Positions 42,792 to 62,849 of a stretch of 64,000 nt of DNA are shown in pieces. Where the stretch lies: positions 35,154,001-35,218,000 of the forward strand of contig CM114271.1 in the NCBI GenBank assembly GCA_050084515.1, read 5' to 3'. The notes under the pieces are model-generated. The model was not told the DNA's origin. It worked only from the letters and a program-made list of their open reading frames with translations, and made no database searches. How positions within the stretch are numbered: the stretch's first letter is position 1; every line of letters starts with the position of its first letter. The position numbers and the translations under genes were made by a program. The stretch comes from Blasia pusilla. Taxonomy: Eukaryota.

Positions 42792-43008
<217 letters not shown>

Positions 43009-47393: not shown

Positions 47394-49074
47394 CTATACA
47401 CCTTCGTGGGTGCACGAATCAGAAGGCCGGGTGCTAGGTTGCCCCATCGTTAGTCGCACATAAGTACATCGAGGACAAAACCACCTTCTAGTAGGAACAA
47501 CATCCATACGTGGAGTCAAACACATCATGTGCCAACCCCTAGAACACCGATCACACACCAACATACGGGCTGCGTTACCAGCAGACCCACACAACATGCA
47601 CCTCAAGCTAGCACGTATCATGGTTAAGCTTGGGTCAACAGTACCATCCACATTTGGAAGATGACATGGCGTACAATTACGCACATGGTCCTTCCAAACA
47701 ACTCCATCACGACCCTCCAACATGAGAACTCCAGAAGCTAACACCTCGCCCACTCGTAAAATAGTGCGGCCTGCCATCACATCCAACGTTGTCGGTGCAA
47801 TCTGCTGCAAATAGACATAGCCCTCCACATGGAATCTACAAATTGATGGTTGATAACCTCCATCCCAAATGGTTGCATACCGCAACGTATCCATGTGTTG
47901 AGCAATGGCAAGATTCTCAAAGGCTATCGACATAACTCTCCGAAAGAGCTCTGCCTGCTGAGAACACACTCTCATCCACATCTCTGGGTAATCAAGGTTT
48001 ACCACCTCACTGGACTCCCGAATAATTGCTGCGGGCAAGTCTGGATCTCGGCTGTATAACAAAAAATAAGGTGAGAAGGAAGCCAAGGATCCTTGGCGAC
48101 TGAACCTATACCCCATGGCTAACCATGGCAACTGAATATCCCAGTCTCCAAGATACCCCTTCTCTAGGCCATACTTGCGCAATGCCCTCTTCACCGTCTG
48201 AACCACACGCTCAGCCAAACCGTCCGTCTCTGGATGATCTCGAGACCTGGTCTGATGGATCAATCAACGCCTTGTCACACAAGACCTGAAACTCACCCTG
48301 AAACTCTCTACCCTGGTCGGTTAGCACTTCAGCTGGTGCACCAAAATGACTAAGCACTCTATCAAGAAATGCATGCGACGTTCCTTCACTTGCCTTGTCA
48401 GGTAATGCCACCAACTCAATCCACTTGGAGAAGTGCTCCACCATCACCAACACATATCGATGATGTCGTACACTCAACGGTAACGATCCCGCAAAGTCCA
48501 CACTCCAATGATAACCCAACCCCATAATAGGCAAGGGATGTAACTGTGGTATAGGGGCATTGAATGATGCCCTCACCCGGTCACAAACCATACAACGTGA
48601 CACCAACTGCTGCACCTAAGTCTGCATGCCACGCCACCAATACTGACCAAGGAGTAAGCTATACATACGCTTTACCCCAAAATGTCCCAACTCCTCATGG
48701 GCATGTCGCACAATGCACTCTCTCTGAGCCAAATGCAACACTACTCGTACTCTACCATCCTCCCACATATGGAGAATATGTGTTCCCTCCAATCGATATC
48801 TCTTAGCACGTTGAAGAACACGGTCTCGCTCCTTGGGACTCACTATGCCTGGCATCCTACTGGTCCGTAGGAACTCCAACACCAACGCATCATCATGAAT
48901 ATCACACTGATCCGTACCACCATCTCCAACCTTAGGATCTGAAGGTTGGCCATCTACCCTCTGACTAGAGTAAGATGTCATGTGGTCCTCCATACTAGAG
49001 TCCACCCCTAACCAACAAAAAAAGGCGGATGCATGCCAACCTGACACCATCTCCTCATCAACCTCCCATGCCAT
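47394..49074 (-). pseudogene. Gypsy integrase (HHCC + DDE) with C-terminal PHD finger (47466-47600)
   Basis: HAHEELGHFGV...CMVC; DFAG, TDQGREF, GLAER; PHD C4HC3 CMLC-x11-CDRC-x4-HMMC-x14-CPRC with the typical P..W.C ending. One stop and one frameshift. Confidence 0.93.
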
Positions 49075-49163: not shown

Positions 49164-50450
49164 CTAGAAGTCATACTCCTGTAAGATAAGAGCCCACCGT
49201 GCAAGCTTCCATGTAAGCTTGTCAAACTCCATCAACCACTTGAGCGGCTGGTGATCAGTAACAAGGGTAAACTGTGTGCCAAACAAGTAACACCTAAAGT
49301 GTGCCACAACCCACACTACTGCCAAGCACTCTCCCTCATATGAACTGTAGCGCAACTCCGCTGCATTATTCGAACGACTTACATAGGCCACCACAAACTC
49401 CATGTGCTCATCATCATGTTGTATCAACACCGCTCCAAGTCCCAACCTACTCCAATCAGTGTGTAACTGAAATGGGTGCCCTCTGATAGGTCTCCTCACG
49501 ATAGGCGCCGTCACCAACTGGGCCTTGAGCTCCACAAAAGCTCTCTCCTAATCATCTCCCCAGTGCCACTCCTGATCTGATTTCAGCAATTAGTTCAAAG
49601 GCTTTGCCATAACACTAAATCCCTTCACATACCTCCGATAGTAGTTCGCCAATCCCATGAATGCCCGAACTCTACTCACATCTACCAGACAAGGAATAAG
49701 TGCAATAGCCTCCACCTTTGCTTGCTGAACTCCCAAACCACCTGGATAGATCACATGACCCAAGTACTCAACATCCTCATGGAAGAACTTACACTTTCTT
49801 GGATGCAAACGTAGACCATGAGCTTTCAACCGCTCAAACACAATCTGCAAATGTATCTGATGCTCCTCTAGCGTGTTACTGAACACCAAGATATCATCAA
49901 TGTAACACTGAACAAAATCTAACCTTGCAAGGATCCTGTCCATCACTCTCTGAAACTCGGCAGGTGCATTCTTCAACCCAAAGGGTAAGAATTTCCACTG
50001 GTACAAACAATCCTTGCCATGAGAGTTGACACCCCAAAATGCTGTCTTGGCCTTGTCACTCTCTCGAATCGGCAACTGATGGTATCCTGTCCGAAGATCC
50101 AAAGTATTGAAAATTTTTGCATGTCCCATCATATCAAAGATCTCCTCAGGTGTAGGCATGGCATACCTATCACCCTTGGTTTGATGATTGATATGACGGT
50201 AATCTCCACACATATGCATCCGCCTATCCGTGTAGTTGCCATGCACATCCTTTTTAGCAAGCATGACTGTGGCTGATGCATACTCTCCATGCGACAACTC
50301 CACTAATCCAGCCTCCAAAAGGTCCAACGTCCTTCTCTGAATCAGGTCCCTCTCCATATCACTATATCCGTAGGGACGACGGAAGATTGGAGAATCACTA
50401 GCCAAATCAATCCGTATACCGGGTCCATCCAAAGCGCCCAACTCCTTCAT
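49164..50450 (-). pseudogene. Gypsy reverse transcriptase and RNase H
   Basis: MCGDYR, LDLRTGYHQ, KTAF, LPFGLKNAPAEFQR, YIDDILV; RNase H LHTDWS, YSSYEGECLA, TDHQPL, KLARWALILQEYDF. Confidence 0.96.
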
Positions 50451-50859
50451 GCTAAAGGCAAAATAACTCCTATAAGCACGTAGAAATTATGTCAATCGTT
50501 GTTTCTCACCTCCCGTAAGCTTGGGCCCTAGTAATAGATCCCAAGTCTCCTCCATTGGTACACTAGAGGGAGAGGACGACGCCATTGGCTGCTATGCAAC
50601 CCCCTCACAAGATGGTCCACCCTTATCTACACCATCATCTGAGCAAATAACTCCTCCACCAGCATGAGCAACCAACTCCACATGCCCAGCCATTACATCC
50701 CATTTACTCCAAGGATGCAAAATACTATTCTCCTCGCCCCCAACCGATGTCTCTACCGTCTTGGTAGCCATCGAGCTCATCACAAGGGGTGGAAGAGCCA
50801 CACACATAGTCCGAAGTCGACGTTGCTCGGTCATACCAACACTCAAAATCCAAGTCAAA

Positions 50860-51450
50860 CAATTCAAGTCCATGGCCTGACCCAACACATGAAGTCGTGA
50901 AGCCTCAGAAATGGAAGCAACCGTTGTCACACGAGTAGCAAATCCCATCGCACGCTCTCTCTCATCCAAGATACTATCCACTATAAGGCAAGGATCCCGC
51001 TGCAGTGCATCACATGCTCGACGTAGAACCTCCCTAGGCAACAAGTTTGTCCACCACAAGAGTGGACGATGTGCACGCGAGCCAACTCTCGCTGCATCCA
51101 ACAACACCGCTGGTCCAATCCAAGACCGCACCTCATGAACACTTGCCATCATCCGGGTCCAAGTGTCACCCAACAATGGAAAATTCTCCAGAATGTAAGC
51201 TGGAGCACGTGCCTGATGAACCTGAAGATGTCGTAACACCCGTAACATCTCCCAAAATAATCGAGACCTAGGGTTATGTAATCCCTTACCACGACCAACA
51301 CATGTATGACCCTGACATGGCCATCCAGCAATCACCAAATCCACAGGACCATCCTCTCAAGGTCCTTCGCCCCCAACAATGCAATGTGTGATGGCAAAGC
51401 ACGCTGGTACCCACAAATAGATGATGGCGGCAAAAACTCAGGATATGTCC
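50860..51450 (-). pseudogene. C5-cytosine DNA methyltransferase domain within Gypsy pol, motifs IV-X
   Basis: VDLVIAGWPCQG (motif IV, Cys codon 51315-51317), RSRLF (V), YILENF (VI), SRAHRP.LWWTN (VIII), ERERAMGF (IX), VLGQAMD (X). Confidence 0.92.
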
Positions 51451-51546
51451 GTGTTGCGATTTTTCACGTCCGGACTTCCGTAACATTCGGCACGTCGCCG
51501 TCGAAAGGACGACGAGACCCAACGGTCAGCTCAACGGCTAGAAAAG

Positions 51547-51554
51547 TATAAATA
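51547..51554 (+). promoter_or_regulatory. Candidate TATA box of the insert gene
   Basis: TATAAATA followed by a pyrimidine-rich leader, ~280 bp upstream of the ATG at 51828. Confidence 0.5.
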
Positions 51555-53011
51555 GGGCAGAAGTCGCTTATTTCCGGTTTCTCATTTTGCGATCTTCATT
51601 CCTCACTCCTCACTCTCCCGCGTAGCAGCTGATCAGATACGAAGGGGCATTTCACGCGGCGACACATCGCGAGTCGATAGGACGGAACGAGAGCGAGATG
51701 GTTCGACCGGCGATATCGGGATGATTCGAGCTAACCACCAAGGCGAGACGAGCTCCCATCTCGACATCAGCAAGGCGATTGATCAAGGGATTCGTCGTGG
51801 ACATAGGCGGAGGCATTTCCGGAAAAAATGACGAGGAAAAAAACACAAGCCAACAAGTCCGGGAGCTTCACTCCCAAGTCCATTAGGACTCCTGCGTCAG
51901 CTTCTCTTGCGCCTCGTTCGGCGAATGAAATTAGGCATCAGGAAATCGAGGAGCGGGAAAGGGAAGCGAAGATGCACAACCAAGTGCTTCTGGCGAGACG
52001 TGTTCAAGCGGCGCTAGATAAACAGAACGAAGAGGCCGAGACGTCGCAGGCCTTGAAGAAAAGGATCGCCGACAAAAAGAGAGAAAAGAAGCGTCTGGAC
52101 GCGTCGGTGAGGAGGGCGGAATCGGCTAAAGCGAGGCAGGAAAAAGCGATAGCCATCGACGATAGCCCAGCCCGTCCAACCGCAAGTGTTGAGATGCGGG
52201 AAATGTCCCCCACGAAGTCGGGGGACACAATCAACATAGTGGAAACAACACCAGTTCAACTCGATGACGACGAGGTCATGAGGACCGCCAACGTGGAGAT
52301 GGTGGACATGGCGGAAGAAGCCGGAGAGCGGTCATTCTCGACTCCAAGCCCGGCGGAGGACATCGACCTCTATTGGATCGACGAGTTCCCAGTCGATTTG
52401 CCAGCCCCTGTCTCAGACAAGTTAGCAGGTCAAGAAACCGACTCCATTTTCGAGCGGGTAAGAGAGGTTAGGTTTTCTTAATTATGTGAATTGCAATTCA
52501 TTGGGATTTCGGTGTAGCTTATTCCTCTTGTCCCGGTTCGACGGTGGTAAAGCAGATGGCACTCATGGAGGGCCACAACGCCCGAGGATTCCCACTGCCG
52601 ATTAAGGACAATGGAATACGCCCGCAAAACTGATCCGACGAGGATATCGCAAAGCCAAAACAATCGGCGATTTACAAAGATCCACGTGGGCTTTTCCTCC
52701 CTTCTATATTCAGCCTTACGACGAGCATGGAACCCAAGCTCTGGTTACCGAGGAGGACTTGGAAAATCTCGACACATTCTGGAGGATGCGATTGAGGCCA
52801 CGGAATTCAGCTGGATGAGGAATCTGCATTTCTTCATCTGGGATGGAAATCACAGGTTCATGGCGTGGACCAAGTTTGCGGAGGAGCGCCCCAACTCATT
52901 GGAGGCACATTTCTGCGTGAAGGCAGTGGTCCTTCACCCATACCCTCATCACATGGCGACGGTGGAGATGGCAATGCATGCCATGAACACGTAAGTATCT
53001 TTAACACTTTC

Positions 53012-53770
53012 CCAACTCGTCGGACTCCGACGAGTTGCTCGATTGATGAATGGGTTAGGTTTGTTTAGGCAGAAAGCAACTCGTCGGACTCCGACGGGTT
53101 GCTAGATCGCACTGATTTTCGAATGTCTTTTAAGATTGACACTTGTTGGACTCCGACGACTTGTTTGATGGAACATAGATTTAACTAGTTTTGGCCCAAA
53201 GCAAACCGCCGAGTCCGGACGGGTTGCTGACAAAGCCGCCTTGTGAGGTTGTTTTTAAGAATGCAACTCGTCGGACTCGACGAGTTTCTCGAAAGTGACC
53301 GCAGTTTAGAAGGTTTTGCCCCAAAGCAACCCGCCGAGTCCGACGGGTTGCTTTGCCTCGGTTATTTTTCCTAATCAACCCGCCGGACTCCGACGGGTTG
53401 CTTTGGGGCAAAACCTTCTAAACTCCGCGGTCACTCGAGAAACTCGCCGGAGTCCGACGAGTTGCATTCTTAAAAACAACCTCACAAGGCGGCCTATCGA
53501 GCAACCCGTCGGACTCGACGGTTTGCTTTGGGCCAACAACTAGTTAAATCTATGTTCAATCATACAAGTCGTCGAGTCCGACGAAAGTTGCAATCTTAAA
53601 AACATCTGAAAAGCGTGCGATCCAAAGAACCCGTCGAAGTCCGACGAAAGTTGCTTACCTGGCATTAGCAAATCTGAATGCAACCCGTCGGACTCGACGG
53701 GTTGCATCATTTAGCTTGTTGCTAGAATCCGACCGAAGTGCGTGACGACCGGTCGAGTCCGACGGGTTGC
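53012..53770. repeat. Array of ~13 palindromic 26-27-bp repeats (GCAACCCGTCGGA[C/G]TCCGACGGGTTGC) with ~35-bp spacers; central part forms a ~600-bp inverted repeat
   Basis: Units start near 53012, 53077, 53139, 53201, 53263, 53326, 53376, 53439, 53501, 53564, 53627, 53680, 53745. Arms 53068-53351 and 53376-53662 are imperfect reverse complements. Confidence 0.92.
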
Positions 53771-55911
53771 AGTGAACCCATGTAATTGCCTGACGGGTTG
53801 AGTTTGGATGTGCAGGATTGTATCGAGGGGAATGTTACCCACCATTGGATCCGGATCGCGATCGGGTGAGGAAGGTGCTTACGACGCACCTAGGAGAGTA
53901 GAGGGAGTTCTTGGGCGATGCCCTCGTCAATCAGATGCTTGCAAAGGGTGCTCAAATTAAGAAGAAAACTTGGGCAAACAAGTTTATTTCTCAAGATGCA
54001 CCGTAACCATCCTTTGCTGGTCGAAGATACAAAGCCCAAGAAAAGCGCCTTTGGACCGAGCCGAGCGGAGGGAGAAGGTATCTGCGTCGAGCGCCAAATT
54101 CATCAAGGCGCCAGATTCTGCTGCAACGAAATACACGGCGAGCAAGATGCAGCGATACATCAAGCATTCTCAACCCGAACTTGGTCCGGAGTTCTACAAG
54201 GAGCTCAAGGCGATTATCAGCGTCGGCCGGAAGAGGGATGAAGATCCGCATGGTCGGATTGGGGAGAAAGTGTCGATGGATCGCGTGCATCGTTTTGCGT
54301 TATCCGGGATTAGCGAGTTGGGAGGATACGATCGATGAAAATCGTCTCGAGGGCTCGAGAGGCCGGAAGAGGGCGGCACACCATCCTCCAGGTGTGTCCG
54401 ATCCGGTGATCTCGCATTTCGCCACGCCGAATGGCCGTTCTAGGACGCGCGTTATGGTAATCGGGAAGTCCCGTCTGGGGATCCGCAAGCGGAGCTCGAA
54501 GATTAGAGCCCATTCGCCGGAAGCAAACCTTGAAAGTTCTGGAGATTACGAGGTTTGGCTCGACGACATCCGGGACAAGCCAACCAAGAACCCTGGATTC
54601 AAGACCATGTTCAAGGTTTGCGTCCTCCCTCAGGCAGAGCTTGACGAAGAAGTAGAGGGTAACAAACAGGATCAAGCGAAGAAGAAGCGAGATCTAAAGG
54701 AGCAGACAGCCGATAATGTTCAACTAAAAGCTGCCCAACGGATGGTATTCATGTACCTCATCCAATGTAAGAACGCAGGTACGTGGGGAAAATTGCCGGT
54801 AGCCTTGAAATTGTGGGCTTCGCCGCCGGATGCAGAGACATTCTCCATGTACGACGTGGAGATGGGTCAGCACATGTCGGATTGGGAGGTGGAGAATTGC
54901 CCCATTTGGCTCGACTTCAACGACCCTGAAGACATCGCGGATAAGGACTTACAAGTGCTTCATGATGCAGTGGCCTCAGGACAAGACGACATCCCCAATT
55001 TCGCCCACCAAGACTTCTTCGGAGGAGATGCAAGAAGAGCAGGCCCAGAGATAGTGAGTTGGCTTCAAGGTCCGGACAGCCAAAGACAAATCCACAAATG
55101 GTCTCAAAGGCAAGGCGAGGGAAGGGAAAAATTCAGAGGCCGAGACTTCCCAAAGAGAGCTCTGAAGATGAGAGGCCGAGGCGGATTCGCCCCGGACGAG
55201 CGGGAAGAGAGGGTCGGACCAAGTCCTCGGCGAAGAAAACGCCACGAGAATCCGAGGTCATCGAAACCCCGACAAGCCGTCCCGGACTAGAGAGAATCGG
55301 AAGCGAGAGGTGCCGGGTTGTCCCAAGGAGAATACTGACCCATCATCCTTGGGAAGACACAGACAAACAATGACCCGGACAAGCATCCTCCTTCATTTCA
55401 CCTCTTTCTTTGGATGAGCCGAATGAGCACTTGGTTCTCAGCGTCGACAAGCGCCATCGAAAAATTGACAACGCAGGAAGGAAGCTCCAACTAAACGGGC
55501 ACGCTGCTGGACGGTGAATGGAGTGGTGGAAGAGGTTGCGGTGGATCTCTTGATCGCCGATCGCCCCTCGGGGTTGCGACTTTGGGGCTTAAAATCCGCG
55601 GACGAGGTACCGAGTGGAATCGCCGCTCACTTATGACCAGATTGCACTTTTGTTCTCCTTTGCACGCCTATCGAAAGTGACAGGGCTCGCTTCTTGGTGT
55701 TGATTGGAGGGAGCGAGGACGAGCTCTTCAACCTCCAAGGCGTCAAGAAGTCGCTAAAGTGGAGGATGGCACAATCATGGTTCATCAAAAACAAGTACCC
55801 ACTCCGATCCGCAACGAGTTAGATTCGGGTAAGGCTATATTCTGCACAATAATTTCAATTATCTTATAATGATGTGTATAATGAGAGTCGATCTGGTTTT
55901 TTTTGTCAGTG

Positions 55912-56246
55912 AGCAACCCGTCGGGAAGGCGACGGGTTTCGGGCTTAGAGCAGCCCATGCTCGGTTGAGAGCAACCCATCAGTTTTCGACGGGTTGCATC
56001 TTTCCCACATACGAGGGAAAACGGTGTACGCAACCCGACGGGTTGCGATTGATTTTGTTTTGGATGCAACCGTCTAATAGCGACGGGTTGCTCAAAGAGC
56101 ATGGGCTGGTCTGGCCAAAGAACCCGCCGCCTTCCGACGGGTTGCATCCAAAACCAAAATCAACTTGGAAAACCAAAAGCAATTGCAACCCCGGGTTCCG
56201 GACGGGTGGGTCCGGACAAAACAACCCGTCGGACTCAGCAAAGTTG
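55912..56246. repeat. Second, more degenerate array of the same palindrome (~7 units), in the last intron
   Basis: GCAACCC...GACGGGTTGC units near 55912, 55971, 56030, 56065, 56120, 56185, 56221; three more partial units at ~57041, 57089, 57159. Confidence 0.85.
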
Positions 56247-58683
56247 ATCCAAAGTCGATTATTGAAAATCTTCTCTAGGCAACTTCTTTAGTTTCGACAT
56301 TGTTTTGTCTTTGATTTGAGATGGACCACTCCTACGTGTCGCTTCATTCGCCCGAGCACAATTTCCAGGTGTTCAAGATCCGGATCCTGTGGATCCATGC
56401 TCGATGGGTACAACTTAGATAGTTTGTACAATTCCCCCAGGAATTTACATGCAAGGCGAGACCCGCTTCGAGGAAGGAAGGAAAAGTCGCCACCGATGCA
56501 ACGCTCATCGAGCTCTGCTCAAGGCCGGGTGACTTGGTGTTCGACTTAGTGGGCCTTTCAGGGCGAGTATCGAGGCGCTGGCAGAGTGGCAGAACATTCT
56601 CCGCCTTGAGGGAAGGCAGAACTGTTTGACCTTTGCAAGGAGGCAAAGCAGAATCTGAAAGGCTCGTTGGGGTGTACAACTCTCCACCGGGGCCGAGAGC
56701 TCGGTTCCAGAGCCACCCTTGGTAGTGACTCCATCGTCACTTCCAACGATTCCCAAAATTGGGAGGGCAAGGCCGAAAGTGATTTTGCAAGAGCTCTCTG
56801 ACGATGACGAGTGAGTTCAAAGAACTCAATGACCTAGCTTGACTGGCAGCAGCGTTTGGAGTAGGGAGTTTTTGATAATTTGGCAAAAGATTTCATAGAA
56901 TAGATCAAATGTACTGATTCGAGCTTTTTCGGATGATATAAAGTAAGATTTTTTCGATCGATGGTGGTGCTTGTAAATGTTTGGTGATCATTTTGTCTTT
57001 TCGAATGTGATCGTCTATGTACTACACGGTCTTCTACTTTGCAACCCATCGGATTTCTCCTGCTTGCAATTTTCACTTTATGACCATCGCAACCCGCCGG
57101 ATTTCTCCTCCTTGCAACTTTTCGCTTTTTGACCATTGGACCCTTTTACCACCTCCAGGCAACTCGTCGATTCCGACAAAGTTGCCTCGATCGGACCCTT
57201 TTGGATCAGCGATCTGGCGGGCTTCTTCCTTGGCACCTTCCCTCAACTCGTAAAGGCGGCGAGGCTTCTTTTCTTCTCTCGACGTGTTGGATTCCTTCTA
57301 CCTGTGCGGTTGCCATAGTGGTATTACAGGGGGACGGAGTAGATATTGATATTGGATGGGTGTCACATTGCAGAGCGTACAAGGTATACTGCCGAGGAAG
57401 GCGGTGGGACTCAAGACAGGTTACATGGGACCGTTATGGTGTACCTAGTGGGGGCCCAAGGCTCTCGAATTCGCCAAAATTTTGGATCCCCGTCTACAAC
57501 CGGCCAGAGGAGCCATTTGAATCCCAGGACATTCCTTTGGTATTGTCACCGAGGAGAGTTAGGAGTAAATTTGTAGATGACAAGGCTGAAGAAATCATAG
57601 ACTAGGTTCAATGTACATTTCCGAGGTTCCTTCGGAGGTAATAAAGGACGAGATTTTTTGAACCCATAATGGTGTTTGTAAAAGTTTTATGGACTATGTT
57701 TTTTGGACTTGTGGAGGTGGTGCAAGAGAAAGGCCCAAAGAAAGAAAGTCGCCCAAGAACAACTCAAGAAGATTGTACAAGATGATAATGCAGCCAAGTC
57801 ACTCCATTGACCTCAAGCTTAGAGGAGACAAGGGAGATGGTGTAGGCACTAGGGAGTCTCCAGGGTATCCAATGAAGGAGATAGAGTGCTTGATTGCTGT
57901 TGTAGAGGAGGGTTTGAACCAAGGGGATGGATCTGATTGTTAGGGCCAAGAAATGAAGAATAAGGGGCTAAGAAGAGGTCAATGGAGGCTGAGCTCAAAT
58001 GCTTGGAATCTTGTGGGCTAGAAGATTCCTCATGGAAGCCTAGAGGACCTCATTTGAAGGCCATAAAGCTTGAGAATCCAAGGGAGAGATCTATGGAGTT
58101 GAGAGGATCCAAGGAGTGATTTCTGGAAGATTTGTGTAGGTGGAGCTAAGTGGAGGTGTGAACTGAGGGCGGGGCTCGAACTAGATTGAGAAGAAGCAAG
58201 CATGGGAAGAATATAGAGGTAGATCTCACCTTCAAGCATGTCCAAGAGACAGGTCGAGCCTATGCCATCAATGTTGCTCAAGAGGCTTTAGTTAGGGTGT
58301 TGAAGTAGATGAGGTAGAAATTTCAGGCAGTAGATGCCTTGGAGTAGATGCTTAGGGTTGGCATCCGGGTGGTCCTCCAACAAAAATACCAAGGGCACTG
58401 CTTTTTGTTGACCGAGATGAGGAGATGGAAAAATGTTTGTAGTGGTCTTATGATGTCTACTTTTTTTTCGCCCCAAGGAAAAAGGAGGTTTTTTTAGGGC
58501 CAAATGTGGACCATTACCTACTCTCTTCTAAAGATTTCATGGATTTGAAAGCAAACAAAAATTTCAAATATGTCATAAAGTTTTGAAGAGAGGAGGCGGA
58601 TTTGGCCCTTTTTTTTGAAGAGAGACTCTCCTCTCTTCCTCTCTTCCTCTCCTCTCTTACTCTCTCCTGCCAGAATACCAGGC

Positions 58684-59460
58684 CCCGGTGCTAATCCCTC
58701 CAAAGAGATCTAACAATCGAATACCCTCCTCCAGGATACACCACACAATGGGTGTGGTATCCAAGGGTGTCATCGTTGCACTCCCTGCTACCTCGGGTTC
58801 CTCAGACCTGTCACGCTCCACTGCAAACGCCTCGCTCCACACGGTCTGCACATGCTCATCTGCCAATCGTCGAAGCTCCTCAATCGAGCCCCACAACGGC
58901 ACCTCTCCTCCACAGAATGATACGGCTACGATAACACTCCTCTCCATAGAAATGTCAGGAACGGGACTATCCTCTGCATGGACATGCCCCTCAATCAAAT
59001 CACTAGGCCAAGTGATGGCATTGCTAAATGCTGCTAAGGTCGCCACCTCTCCTGGCCATCGCTCGATCACTACACCTATGAATCGAACGGGTAATGAGCT
59101 AAGGCGCCCATCACCTGACTGCCATCCTGGTCTGTAGGACGTTGACTCCTCCCAATAATCCAGGGAAAACCCCATTAGGTATAACACTGCTCCACCAACC
59201 AAGACGTTGTAGGACTGTGCATCAGTCACTATCGCCTTGGCTCGCACCACGGACTCATCTGTAGGATATCCCGGGAAAATCCTCACCACGACCTCATGTC
59301 GGGGGATATACTGTGTGGTACTTGCTCCACCCAAGGATGTCTATATGCGGAATGGACAACGCTCCACATCAGCTCTCGTCAAGCCCAATCCTCTAAATGA
59401 CGCTTTCCCCAACATCAAGGTTGCGCTCTTGAATCCAACAAGACGCGCCGCGGACTAAAA
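58684..59460 (-). pseudogene. Gypsy aspartic protease, linker and DNMT motif I
   Basis: RRVLLDSRAQP (D-S-G site, mutated) near 59420-59450 and YNVLVGG; in-frame downstream GIRLLDLFGGISTG (SAM-binding motif I, 58684-58713). Confidence 0.85.
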
Positions 59461-61682: not shown

Positions 61683-62849
61683 TCACTCTCAACCTCACGA
61701 GTAATCCCTCAATCACTCATCCTAAACATGCGGCACTCGATCTACACTCTCCCTCCCCGTGACGTGTAACGTGCGGCAACAAGCGGCGTGGTGCGGCAAA
61801 TCGACCAGGCTATCATCTCATCGACAACCTACCCTCAACTCCGAACATCCCACACAGGTCTATGTCCCCTAAACCACATATATAAATGATGCTCTCAGCA
61901 TCCATACAACCCAATATCCCCAAATAAACTACCCAAATCCCAGAATTCCTACGCATGCAGGGTAAAGGACCAGAATGGGTAACCTTAACACATGTCGATG
62001 TCGCTCCTCAGCAACTGCAAATCTCGATCCCAACTCGGTCGTGGAGACAACTCCTCTAATCAGAAAGTCATATTCCTCCCGTATTGACGCTCCTCAAAAC
62101 TCCTCGATGGACACTGCAATTCCAGCAGAACGGTGGGGCGTTGCAGGCGGTATAGAACGGCTAGGAACGGCATGGCCCTTGATGGTAGGATCCGACACTC
62201 GGCAGCATACCCTCCTCAATCAACAATAAACCCACACTCTGCTCCACAATGACAGTGCAGCTCCACGATCGAGACGGTGCGGTGCAGCCACGAGCAGCAT
62301 GGCGCGGCAATCGGCGGCACGTTGCGGCTACGGGCGTCACGGCACAGTACTCAATCGTCATCGAGCAGCAACCAATCATAACATAGCAGCATGAAATCAA
62401 AACTCAAACACCATAACCGGAGGTCATCTACCATCACTGGTTGATGACGAAACTGTGATGACGGTGGCGGCCAAACCAAAGTACATGCTGGCGGCGCAAG
62501 TCAGAGAATCAACGGTGGTCGTGGAAGACCCTCCACTTCATAATGGCGGAAATGGCAATCAAAGGGTGGAAAACGTCCAAATGCGGCTTTGAGCAACGCT
62601 GGACAACGACAACGACCGACGGTGGCCGGTGGATGGTGGATGGTGGACGGTGACGGTTGATCGTTGATGGTGACGACGGACCGTTGACGGTGATAGTTGA
62701 CCATTGACGGTGACCGTTGACCGTTGACCGGTGATGGTGACTATGACGGCGACGACCTCCGCCGGCGTGGCGGCTGGTTTAGGGTTTGAACAATTTAACC
62801 CTAAAAATTGCCTAGCAATGGCAATTTTGCAAGATTGACCATAACTTTT

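Follow-up and report, generated by a model that had tools for sequence, protein, structure and literature searches.

The palindromes of an intron

A short palindrome is repeated at nearly regular intervals within one intron of a gene with a ParB-like exon, in a 64,000-bp stretch of the Blasia pusilla genome (hereafter, the window). The question is what these palindromes are for, and which protein, if any, recognizes them. The following alternatives are to be distinguished: the palindromes could be DNA sites bound by the product of the gene in which they lie; they could serve the transposase of a mobile element that carries both; they could act as hairpins in RNA or unpaired DNA; or they could be neutral products of slippage and recombination.

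The array (53012..53770, with no strand assigned) is located inside intron 2 of what we call the accessory gene and consists of 13 copies of the 25-bp palindrome CAACYCGTCG-N5-CGACGRGTTG, starting at 53013, 53077, 53139, 53202, 53264, 53327, 53376, 53440, 53502, 53565, 53627, 53681 and 53746. The successive spacings are 64, 62, 63, 62, 63, 49, 64, 62, 63, 62, 54 and 65 bp, that is, a period of 62-64 bp with short steps of 49 and 54 bp. The first-pass annotation counted about 13 palindromes at a period of 62-63 bp; 13 were placed, and the period agrees here, while in less eroded copies of the transposon described below it is 64 bp. A second cluster is situated at 55913-56246 within the last intron, and half-sites together with one degenerate palindrome are found in the 3' non-coding DNA (57041..57183, also without a strand). 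Elsewhere in the window, outside 51400-58700, there is no palindrome. In the 390-Mb genome, there are 3,824 exact matches to CAACCCGTCG-N5-CGACGGGTTG, compared with 0 for the reversed control, and thus the palindrome is not due to chance.

Palindromic repeats at near-regular spacing are also seen in CRISPR arrays, where the spacers are expected to be unique and foreign. The spacers here had been described as differing from their neighbours, and they indeed are unlike the adjacent ones, but they are not unique: spacers 2/10, 3/9, 4/8 and 5/7 are mutual reverse complements at 81, 92, 91 and 94% identity, respectively (shuffled spacers: mean 48%, maximum 66%), and there are direct-tandem subfamilies with near-identical repeated spacers. 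Hence, the spacers are internal mirror or tandem copies, and the mirrored ones make intron 2 a long foldback, not a CRISPR-like array. In addition, the array is intronic, the Rfam scan of 51400-58700 gave 0 matches, and no cas families were found in Pfam scans of the ORFs of the element. We conclude that this is not a CRISPR, as had been assumed from the start.

The array is carried by a Mutator-like transposon

The genome search with the array produced at least 151 matches (40 scored of 1,344 candidates). The flanking exons of the window are matched by all 20 array-search copies, 18 of which reach a right end near 58687, and other copies extend approximately 5.5 kb to the left beyond 51450. 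The window thus holds the right 7.2 kb (51450..58687, plus strand) of a ~12.7-kb Mutator-like transposon; this copy is left-truncated, lacking the left 5.5 kb with the transposase and the intergenic array, and its left break at 51450 falls in a palindrome half-site.

Both ends were found in 13 of the 18 copies read with the neighbouring stretch (the other 5 are without an end), the length being 11.5-14.9 kb. Target duplications of 9-10 bp with at most one mismatch flank 10 of the 13 two-ended copies, one more copy has a duplication with 2 mismatches, and 2 have none; this is within the 8-10 bp typical of MULEs. At the right terminus (58626..58687, plus strand), CT-rich repeats run up to ...CCAGAATACCAG(G/C)CCC; in inverted orientation, they correspond in a degenerate way to the GA-rich left terminus of full copies, and these degenerate GA/CT-rich inverted repeats are all that the termini have in common, as in non-TIR MULEs.

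In full copies, the left part contains a transposase gene on the minus strand, with the accessory gene oriented divergently, and the two genes travel together in the element. The transposase, present in all 8 full copies translated, shows the conserved D, D and DAFH motifs together with a SWIM finger (E 0.014, below the cut-off), as a MULE-type DDE transposase should; its Atlas score is 0.93 with 185 shared features, in a cluster where 61% of members have PF10551. As the direct scan of the transposase against the Pfam MULE family was negative, the support for a MULE DDE transposase is moderate. A search with the transposase among proteins found one protein. Taken as a whole, the element is a multi-copy Mutator-like DNA transposon of the non-TIR type. 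Given about 4.7 exact palindromes per full copy, there should be many hundreds of element copies, as a rough figure.

Head-to-head copies on contigs C6 and C4 had suggested a giant element with long TIRs, but each copy has its own ends, and this candidate was rejected; in the head-to-head case, L024, L027 and L037 each carry their own target duplications.

The first-pass annotation considered the ParB-methyltransferase gene with its sites to be a self-contained protein-plus-site module. This needs to be changed, the unit being the whole Mutator-like transposon with its own transposase, a rival binder of the palindromes.

The transposon itself lies within a Gypsy-like LTR retrotransposon, whose C5 cytosine-methyltransferase domain it interrupts. 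Pieces of this domain (PF00145, above the cut-off) are found on the minus strand at 50592-51356 (PCQ and ENF, left of the transposon) and 58657-59340 (the motif I region, right of it), the reverse transcriptase is at 49590-50486, and the integrase followed by a PHD finger is at 47394-48263. DNMT-carrying retrotransposons are reported in dinoflagellates and charophytes (PMC5890265). The window also contains a perfect (GA)105 microsatellite at 42795-43004 and a 7/20/40-bp GACGGT-type tandem repeat at 62618-62753.

Palindromes are kept in non-coding DNA while spacers turn over

In full copies, palindromes form clusters in the transposase intron (35-bp period), in the intergenic region (65/67 bp), in intron 2 (64 bp) and in the last intron, with additional single palindromes near the left end and in the 3' region. 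Within one element the arms are identical between clusters, whereas the centres and the unit lengths (35, 65/67 and 64 bp) differ. Thus, the motif is absent from the rest of the window, as claimed earlier, but its restriction to one gene does not hold for full-length copies, where it is also clustered in the transposase intron and between the genes. Coding sequence, which makes up 57% of the length of 11 full copies, contains 0 of 378 palindromes, a count that is partly circular in that exon bounds were taken from open frames of one copy.

The palindrome and the element co-occur both ways, as the first-pass annotation would have it. Of the exact palindromes on contig C1, the first-listed ones were used to sample 20 stretches, all of which belong to the element family (two of them are adjacent): 19 have tblastn matches to the accessory-gene exons, and one has transposase and exon-1 DNA. 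Vice versa, at least 4 palindromes were present at 30 of 30 loci chosen from 139 matches of a distant methyltransferase query, and at 24 of 24 loci chosen with two other distant homologues, which had 77 and 129 matches (54/54 sampled gene loci). These three distant-homologue searches revealed no second family with another motif; they all gave the same family, with at least 75% identity for the best exons. An independent MITE or minisatellite was rejected, as 20/20 array matches continue into the flanking exons and 20/20 palindrome regions are within the element family. A motif scan of metagenomes gave 16 isolated single sites.

If the arrays were neutral products of slippage or recombination at a recombinogenic palindrome, tandem turnover should homogenise the spacers together with the arms, and a self-spreading unit would be expected outside the element. 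The number of palindromes does differ between copies, and breakpoints do occur at or near palindromes, including the left break of the window copy and the shortened introns of two loci (L166 and L167, see below). The opposite is observed for the spacers: in L077, L083, L091, L092 and L093, whose dS ranges from about 0.9 to saturated, intron 2 keeps 9-16 palindromes, while the spacers have another length and sequence and have only short stretches in common with the reference intron. None of the 20 sampled palindrome regions is outside the element. The palindrome is thus kept across subfamilies despite spacer turnover, which argues for selection on the motif itself, and we regard the neutral explanation as quite improbable.

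L166 (5370-5560) and L167 (5080-5220) retain only 1-3 palindromes in a shortened intron 2, the rest apparently having been lost by deletion between sites.

The spacing of the palindromes had been said to be helically phased. Over 141 spacer clusters from 60 loci, the distances peak near 54, 64-65, 74-75 and 85 bp; the Rayleigh R is 0.22 at 10.5 bp (p about 1e-3) and 0.25 at 10.0 bp, and when distances of at most 90 bp are tested against a smoothed null, p is 0.0006, the spacer clusters sharing ancestry and hence not being independent. Phasing near 10-10.5 bp is therefore seen, but it is weak and does not extend to the 35-bp cluster.

The accessory gene is spliced and under purifying selection

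The accessory gene consists of four exons, all on the plus strand. Exon 1 (51828..52466, predicted boundaries) encodes a charged low-complexity N-terminus. Exon 2 (52545..52990, the start approximate) encodes a ParB/Sulfiredoxin-like domain with the WDGNHR motif and is frameshifted here. It is followed by intron 2 (52991..53815, GTAAGT...TGCAG). Exon 3 (53816..55828), also frameshifted here, covers a helical middle domain, an acidic/basic linker and the N-terminal half of a methyltransferase (MTase) with motif IV; then come the predicted last intron (55829..56320), which contains the second palindrome cluster, and exon 4 (56321..56814), the C-terminal half of the beta-class amino-MTase fold with the motif I region DLVGLSG.

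RNA-seq coverage of the sister copy L035 is low and sense-biased, and 6 reads (1, 3 and 2) span the GT..AG joint that matches the array intron; they derive from a single study, of which 3 runs were sampled (6-12% each) at 88% likeness to L035, so that any family member may be the source. Hence, it is at the family level that the array-bearing intron is spliced and transcribed at a low level. Comparison of 11 loci with L035 yields dN/dS of 0.10 in the ParB domain, 0.16 in the middle domain, and values of 0.14 and 0.22 in the two MTase halves, and by this measure the gene evolves under purifying selection.

In several copies, dS of the accessory gene is much higher than dS of the transposase relative to L035; in L091 the values are 0.99 and 0.18, and the same contrast is seen in L078, L080, L083, L077, L085 and L092. 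Such a gap suggests possible swapping of modules between subfamilies.

The accessory protein has 39 homologues at E<=0.001, and those named among the 20 looked up come from Riccia sorocarpa, Riccia fluitans and Adiantum; all 76 matches of a profile search are in Riccia sorocarpa. No family was found in a Pfam scan of the frameshifted gene pieces of the window, and when longer proteins were searched by word index for the ParB exon, there was no match.

In 11 full copies and in the window exons, 1-bp indels are plentiful, and transversions and gaps are raised at CHG and CG. This pattern suggests that some frameshifts may be long-read assembly errors at methylated cytosines and not decay.

Predicted folds of the accessory protein

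The ParB-like and MTase folds that had been read from the sequence are also predicted from structural models of homologues. For the homologue P0044 (pLDDT 74), residues ~10-184 resemble KorB-CTP (Z 6.2), PadC (5.9), ParB-N (5.4) and sulfiredoxin (4.9), which rank 1, 2, 3 and 5 of 48,161 chains, every Z being below 8. The best ParB-fold match has Z 6.2 with rmsd 2.9 over 95 residues, and a Foldseek search gave E 1.2, which is not significant. These middling scores belong to P0044 and not to the window's own protein, whose exon 2 aligns to the ParB-like domain of P0044 at WDGNHR. Pfam and PDB profiles gave no ParB match, and in the whole-protein model the middle domain matched no HTH or other known DNA-binding fold. 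In the ParB and middle region (residues 160-700) of another homologue, P0042, we observed a weak Atlas resemblance to fungal DUF3723 (0.82, the mark being 0.9). Fungal DUF3723 proteins have been linked to Starship elements.

The model of P0043, an MTase-only homologue, is of low confidence (pLDDT 48), and its Foldseek matches, with E from 3.5e-7 to 6e-5, are the beta-class amino-MTases M1.HpyAVI, MboIIa, CcrM and RsrI; N4CMT is also among the fold matches. At the sequence level, the MTase region matches PF01555 at E 1.4e-4 (below the cut-off) and RsrI at E 0.004. The fold and the order of motifs (IV before I) are those of the beta class. The catalytic motif is not: none of 112 proteins has a DPPY-type motif IV, (D/N/S)PP(Y/F/W), and all 28 matches among them are DxPxG-like, with DLPSG in most element copies and DRPSG in the window copy. 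This makes methylation catalysis doubtful, and rather than an active methylase, the MTase fold more likely represents a pseudo-enzyme that binds bases or SAM.

If the palindrome were a methylation target, as the first-pass annotation proposed, or if silencing marks were efficiently removed from it, cytosine decay at the motif could be expected to differ from that in the rest of the element. In 11 copies, C-to-T changes amount to 3.3% at motif CG (4.0-4.4% elsewhere), 2.9% at motif CHG (4.2-6.4% elsewhere) and about 1% at CHH. The rate at motif CG is near that of the rest of the element, and hence the sites were 5mC-methylated, with at most slight protection; as a mutation-spectrum proxy for the removal of silencing marks, this reveals little protection at the palindromes. 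Together with the DxPxG motif IV, the near-normal decay weakens the methylation-target proposal.

The foldback and a possible hairpin role

In the window copy, the mirrored spacers form a foldback at 53074..53656 (no strand assigned), with two ~280-bp arms that are 85% complementary and a centre near 53364; this form is typical of the youngest subfamily. The arms (~580 bp in total) align at 85% over 599 columns, and the predicted folding energy of intron 2 is -529 kcal/mol (z -31). The palindrome arms covary in intron 2, C5/G21 and T5/A21 being counted 169 and 118 times versus 45 and 35 for the mixed combinations (odds ratio 12.7, the counts being non-independent).

These observations could be explained if the motif worked as a hairpin in RNA, or in single-stranded or cruciform DNA, for splicing control, as a source of small RNAs or as a structural substrate, the foldback intron being the extreme case. 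If an RNA strand were selected, G-U-compatible mismatches should be retained more often than A-C ones. This is so in intron 2 (208:137), but the bias is reversed in the last intron (120:158), and thus there is no consistent RNA-strand signal. The covariation equally fits hairpin-templated repair or symmetric binding of a protein. Arms within the same copy are barely more alike than arms from different copies (0.910 vs 0.905; 19 copies, permutation p 0.036, marginal). Finally, among the extracted introns, the foldback was found in 19 of 19 array-selected copies and in only 3 of 20 unselected ones (2 array-selected and 10 of 30 unselected copies were not extracted). We therefore consider the hairpin role unlikely, and the foldback was rejected as an essential feature.

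The exon-2 tree groups 21 foldback copies, among them that of the window, in a single clade with support of 99/98; one partial foldback falls outside it. The foldback is a recent inverted duplication, mostly limited to the youngest clade, and not the core of the system; it could, putatively, feed small-RNA silencing.

Which protein may use the sites

The reading that we prefer, with a probability of roughly one half, is that the arrays are putative DNA binding sites for the accessory protein, acting by analogy with the anti-silencing system of VANDAL elements and their VANC proteins. The palindromes would be double-stranded sites for a dimer of the accessory protein, consistent with a dyad around a fixed 5-bp centre, and owing to the ~10-bp spacing preference, several dimers would be aligned on the same side of the helix. 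A nucleotide switch or clamp is a possible role of the ParB domain, and the outcome would be VANC-like anti-silencing or transcriptional licensing that keeps the element active. The foldback, as a later inverted duplication, would not be needed.

The co-occurrence of palindromes and element fits either gene, and the palindromes could instead be internal sites of the MULE transposase, involved in transcriptional self-activation or synapsis, with the ParB-MTase gene as separate cargo. MULE transposases are known to bind at element termini. The palindromes are internal: in L035, a single degenerate site is found at a distance of ~200 bp to the left end, and the final 1.5 kb has no site. The termini bear a different, GA/CT-rich inverted repeat. 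On the other hand, the transposase with its SWIM finger was found in each of the 8 full copies translated, and sequence-specific activation of cognate copies has been reported for the AtMu1 transposase (10.64898/2026.08.24.746577). We hold binding by the transposase to be possible, though rather doubtful.

A more specific form of binding by the accessory protein is a transposon-captured ParB/parS-like module, in which a nucleotide-switched ParB clamp loaded on phased arrays would carry the atypical amino-MTase over the 12.7-kb element and so mark it, or shield it, against 5mC silencing by the host, in convergence with VANC and from bacterial parts. In this full form the proposal is improbable.

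Comparison with known systems

The layout most closely resembles VANDAL/VANC. The motifs to which VANC21 binds are located in introns of VANDAL21 and in its intergenic and terminal non-coding DNA (PMC5735166), and the TIRs of VANDALs are degenerate (PMC10398659); the present element is likewise a MULE with degenerate termini, an accessory gene and a short motif in tandem arrays of introns and intergenic DNA. Unlike what these sources describe, the motif is a 25-bp dyad and not a 9-mer, and it is constant across subfamilies and not diverging. The accessory protein also differs, with predicted ParB and amino-MTase folds, to which its homologues point as well; it matches no VANC family, and no other Pfam family passes. 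Thus, the element belongs to the MULE superfamily and is VANDAL/VANC-like in layout, but it is not a VANC system.

With bacterial ParB/parS, KorB/OB and Noc/NBS, the element shares a predicted ParB-fold domain and clustered palindromic cis sites on one mobile unit. In contrast to these systems, the gene is eukaryotic, spliced and fused to an MTase fold, with no HTH detected and no ParA, and it has WDGNHR where bacterial ParB proteins have the GERRxRA motif.

Prokaryote-type amino-MTases in eukaryotes are represented by MpDN4MT1 (10.1101/2021.02.12.428880), rotifer N4CMT (PMC8885841), DAM retrotransposons (10.64898/2026.05.21.726589) and ParB-linked clades (PMC4738411). As far as these reports describe them, MpDN4MT1 has the motif TSPPY and the DAMs of DIRS/LTR retrotransposons have NPP, whereas the present family has DxPxG and resides on a cut-and-paste transposon with its own palindrome arrays. 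A MULE with a ParB-MTase gene and palindrome arrays was not encountered in the literature searched, in the parts available to us; the supplements of PMC4738411 could list the protein family.

The best-known TE-encoded anti-silencing proteins that have cis arrays of their own are those of flowering plants, namely VANDAL/VANC and Spm/TnpA. Here, a defined protein and a defined 25-bp site, with 3,824 exact occurrences and under selection, are found in a seed-free plant, and hence their binding is directly testable. That one short motif licenses a whole element is described as an enigmatic feature of VANC (PMC5735166). If the ParB domain does load and spread, it would provide a mechanism by which one short motif licenses a multi-kilobase element, and this would be a eukaryotic parS-like system, with relatives of the protein in other liverworts and a fern.
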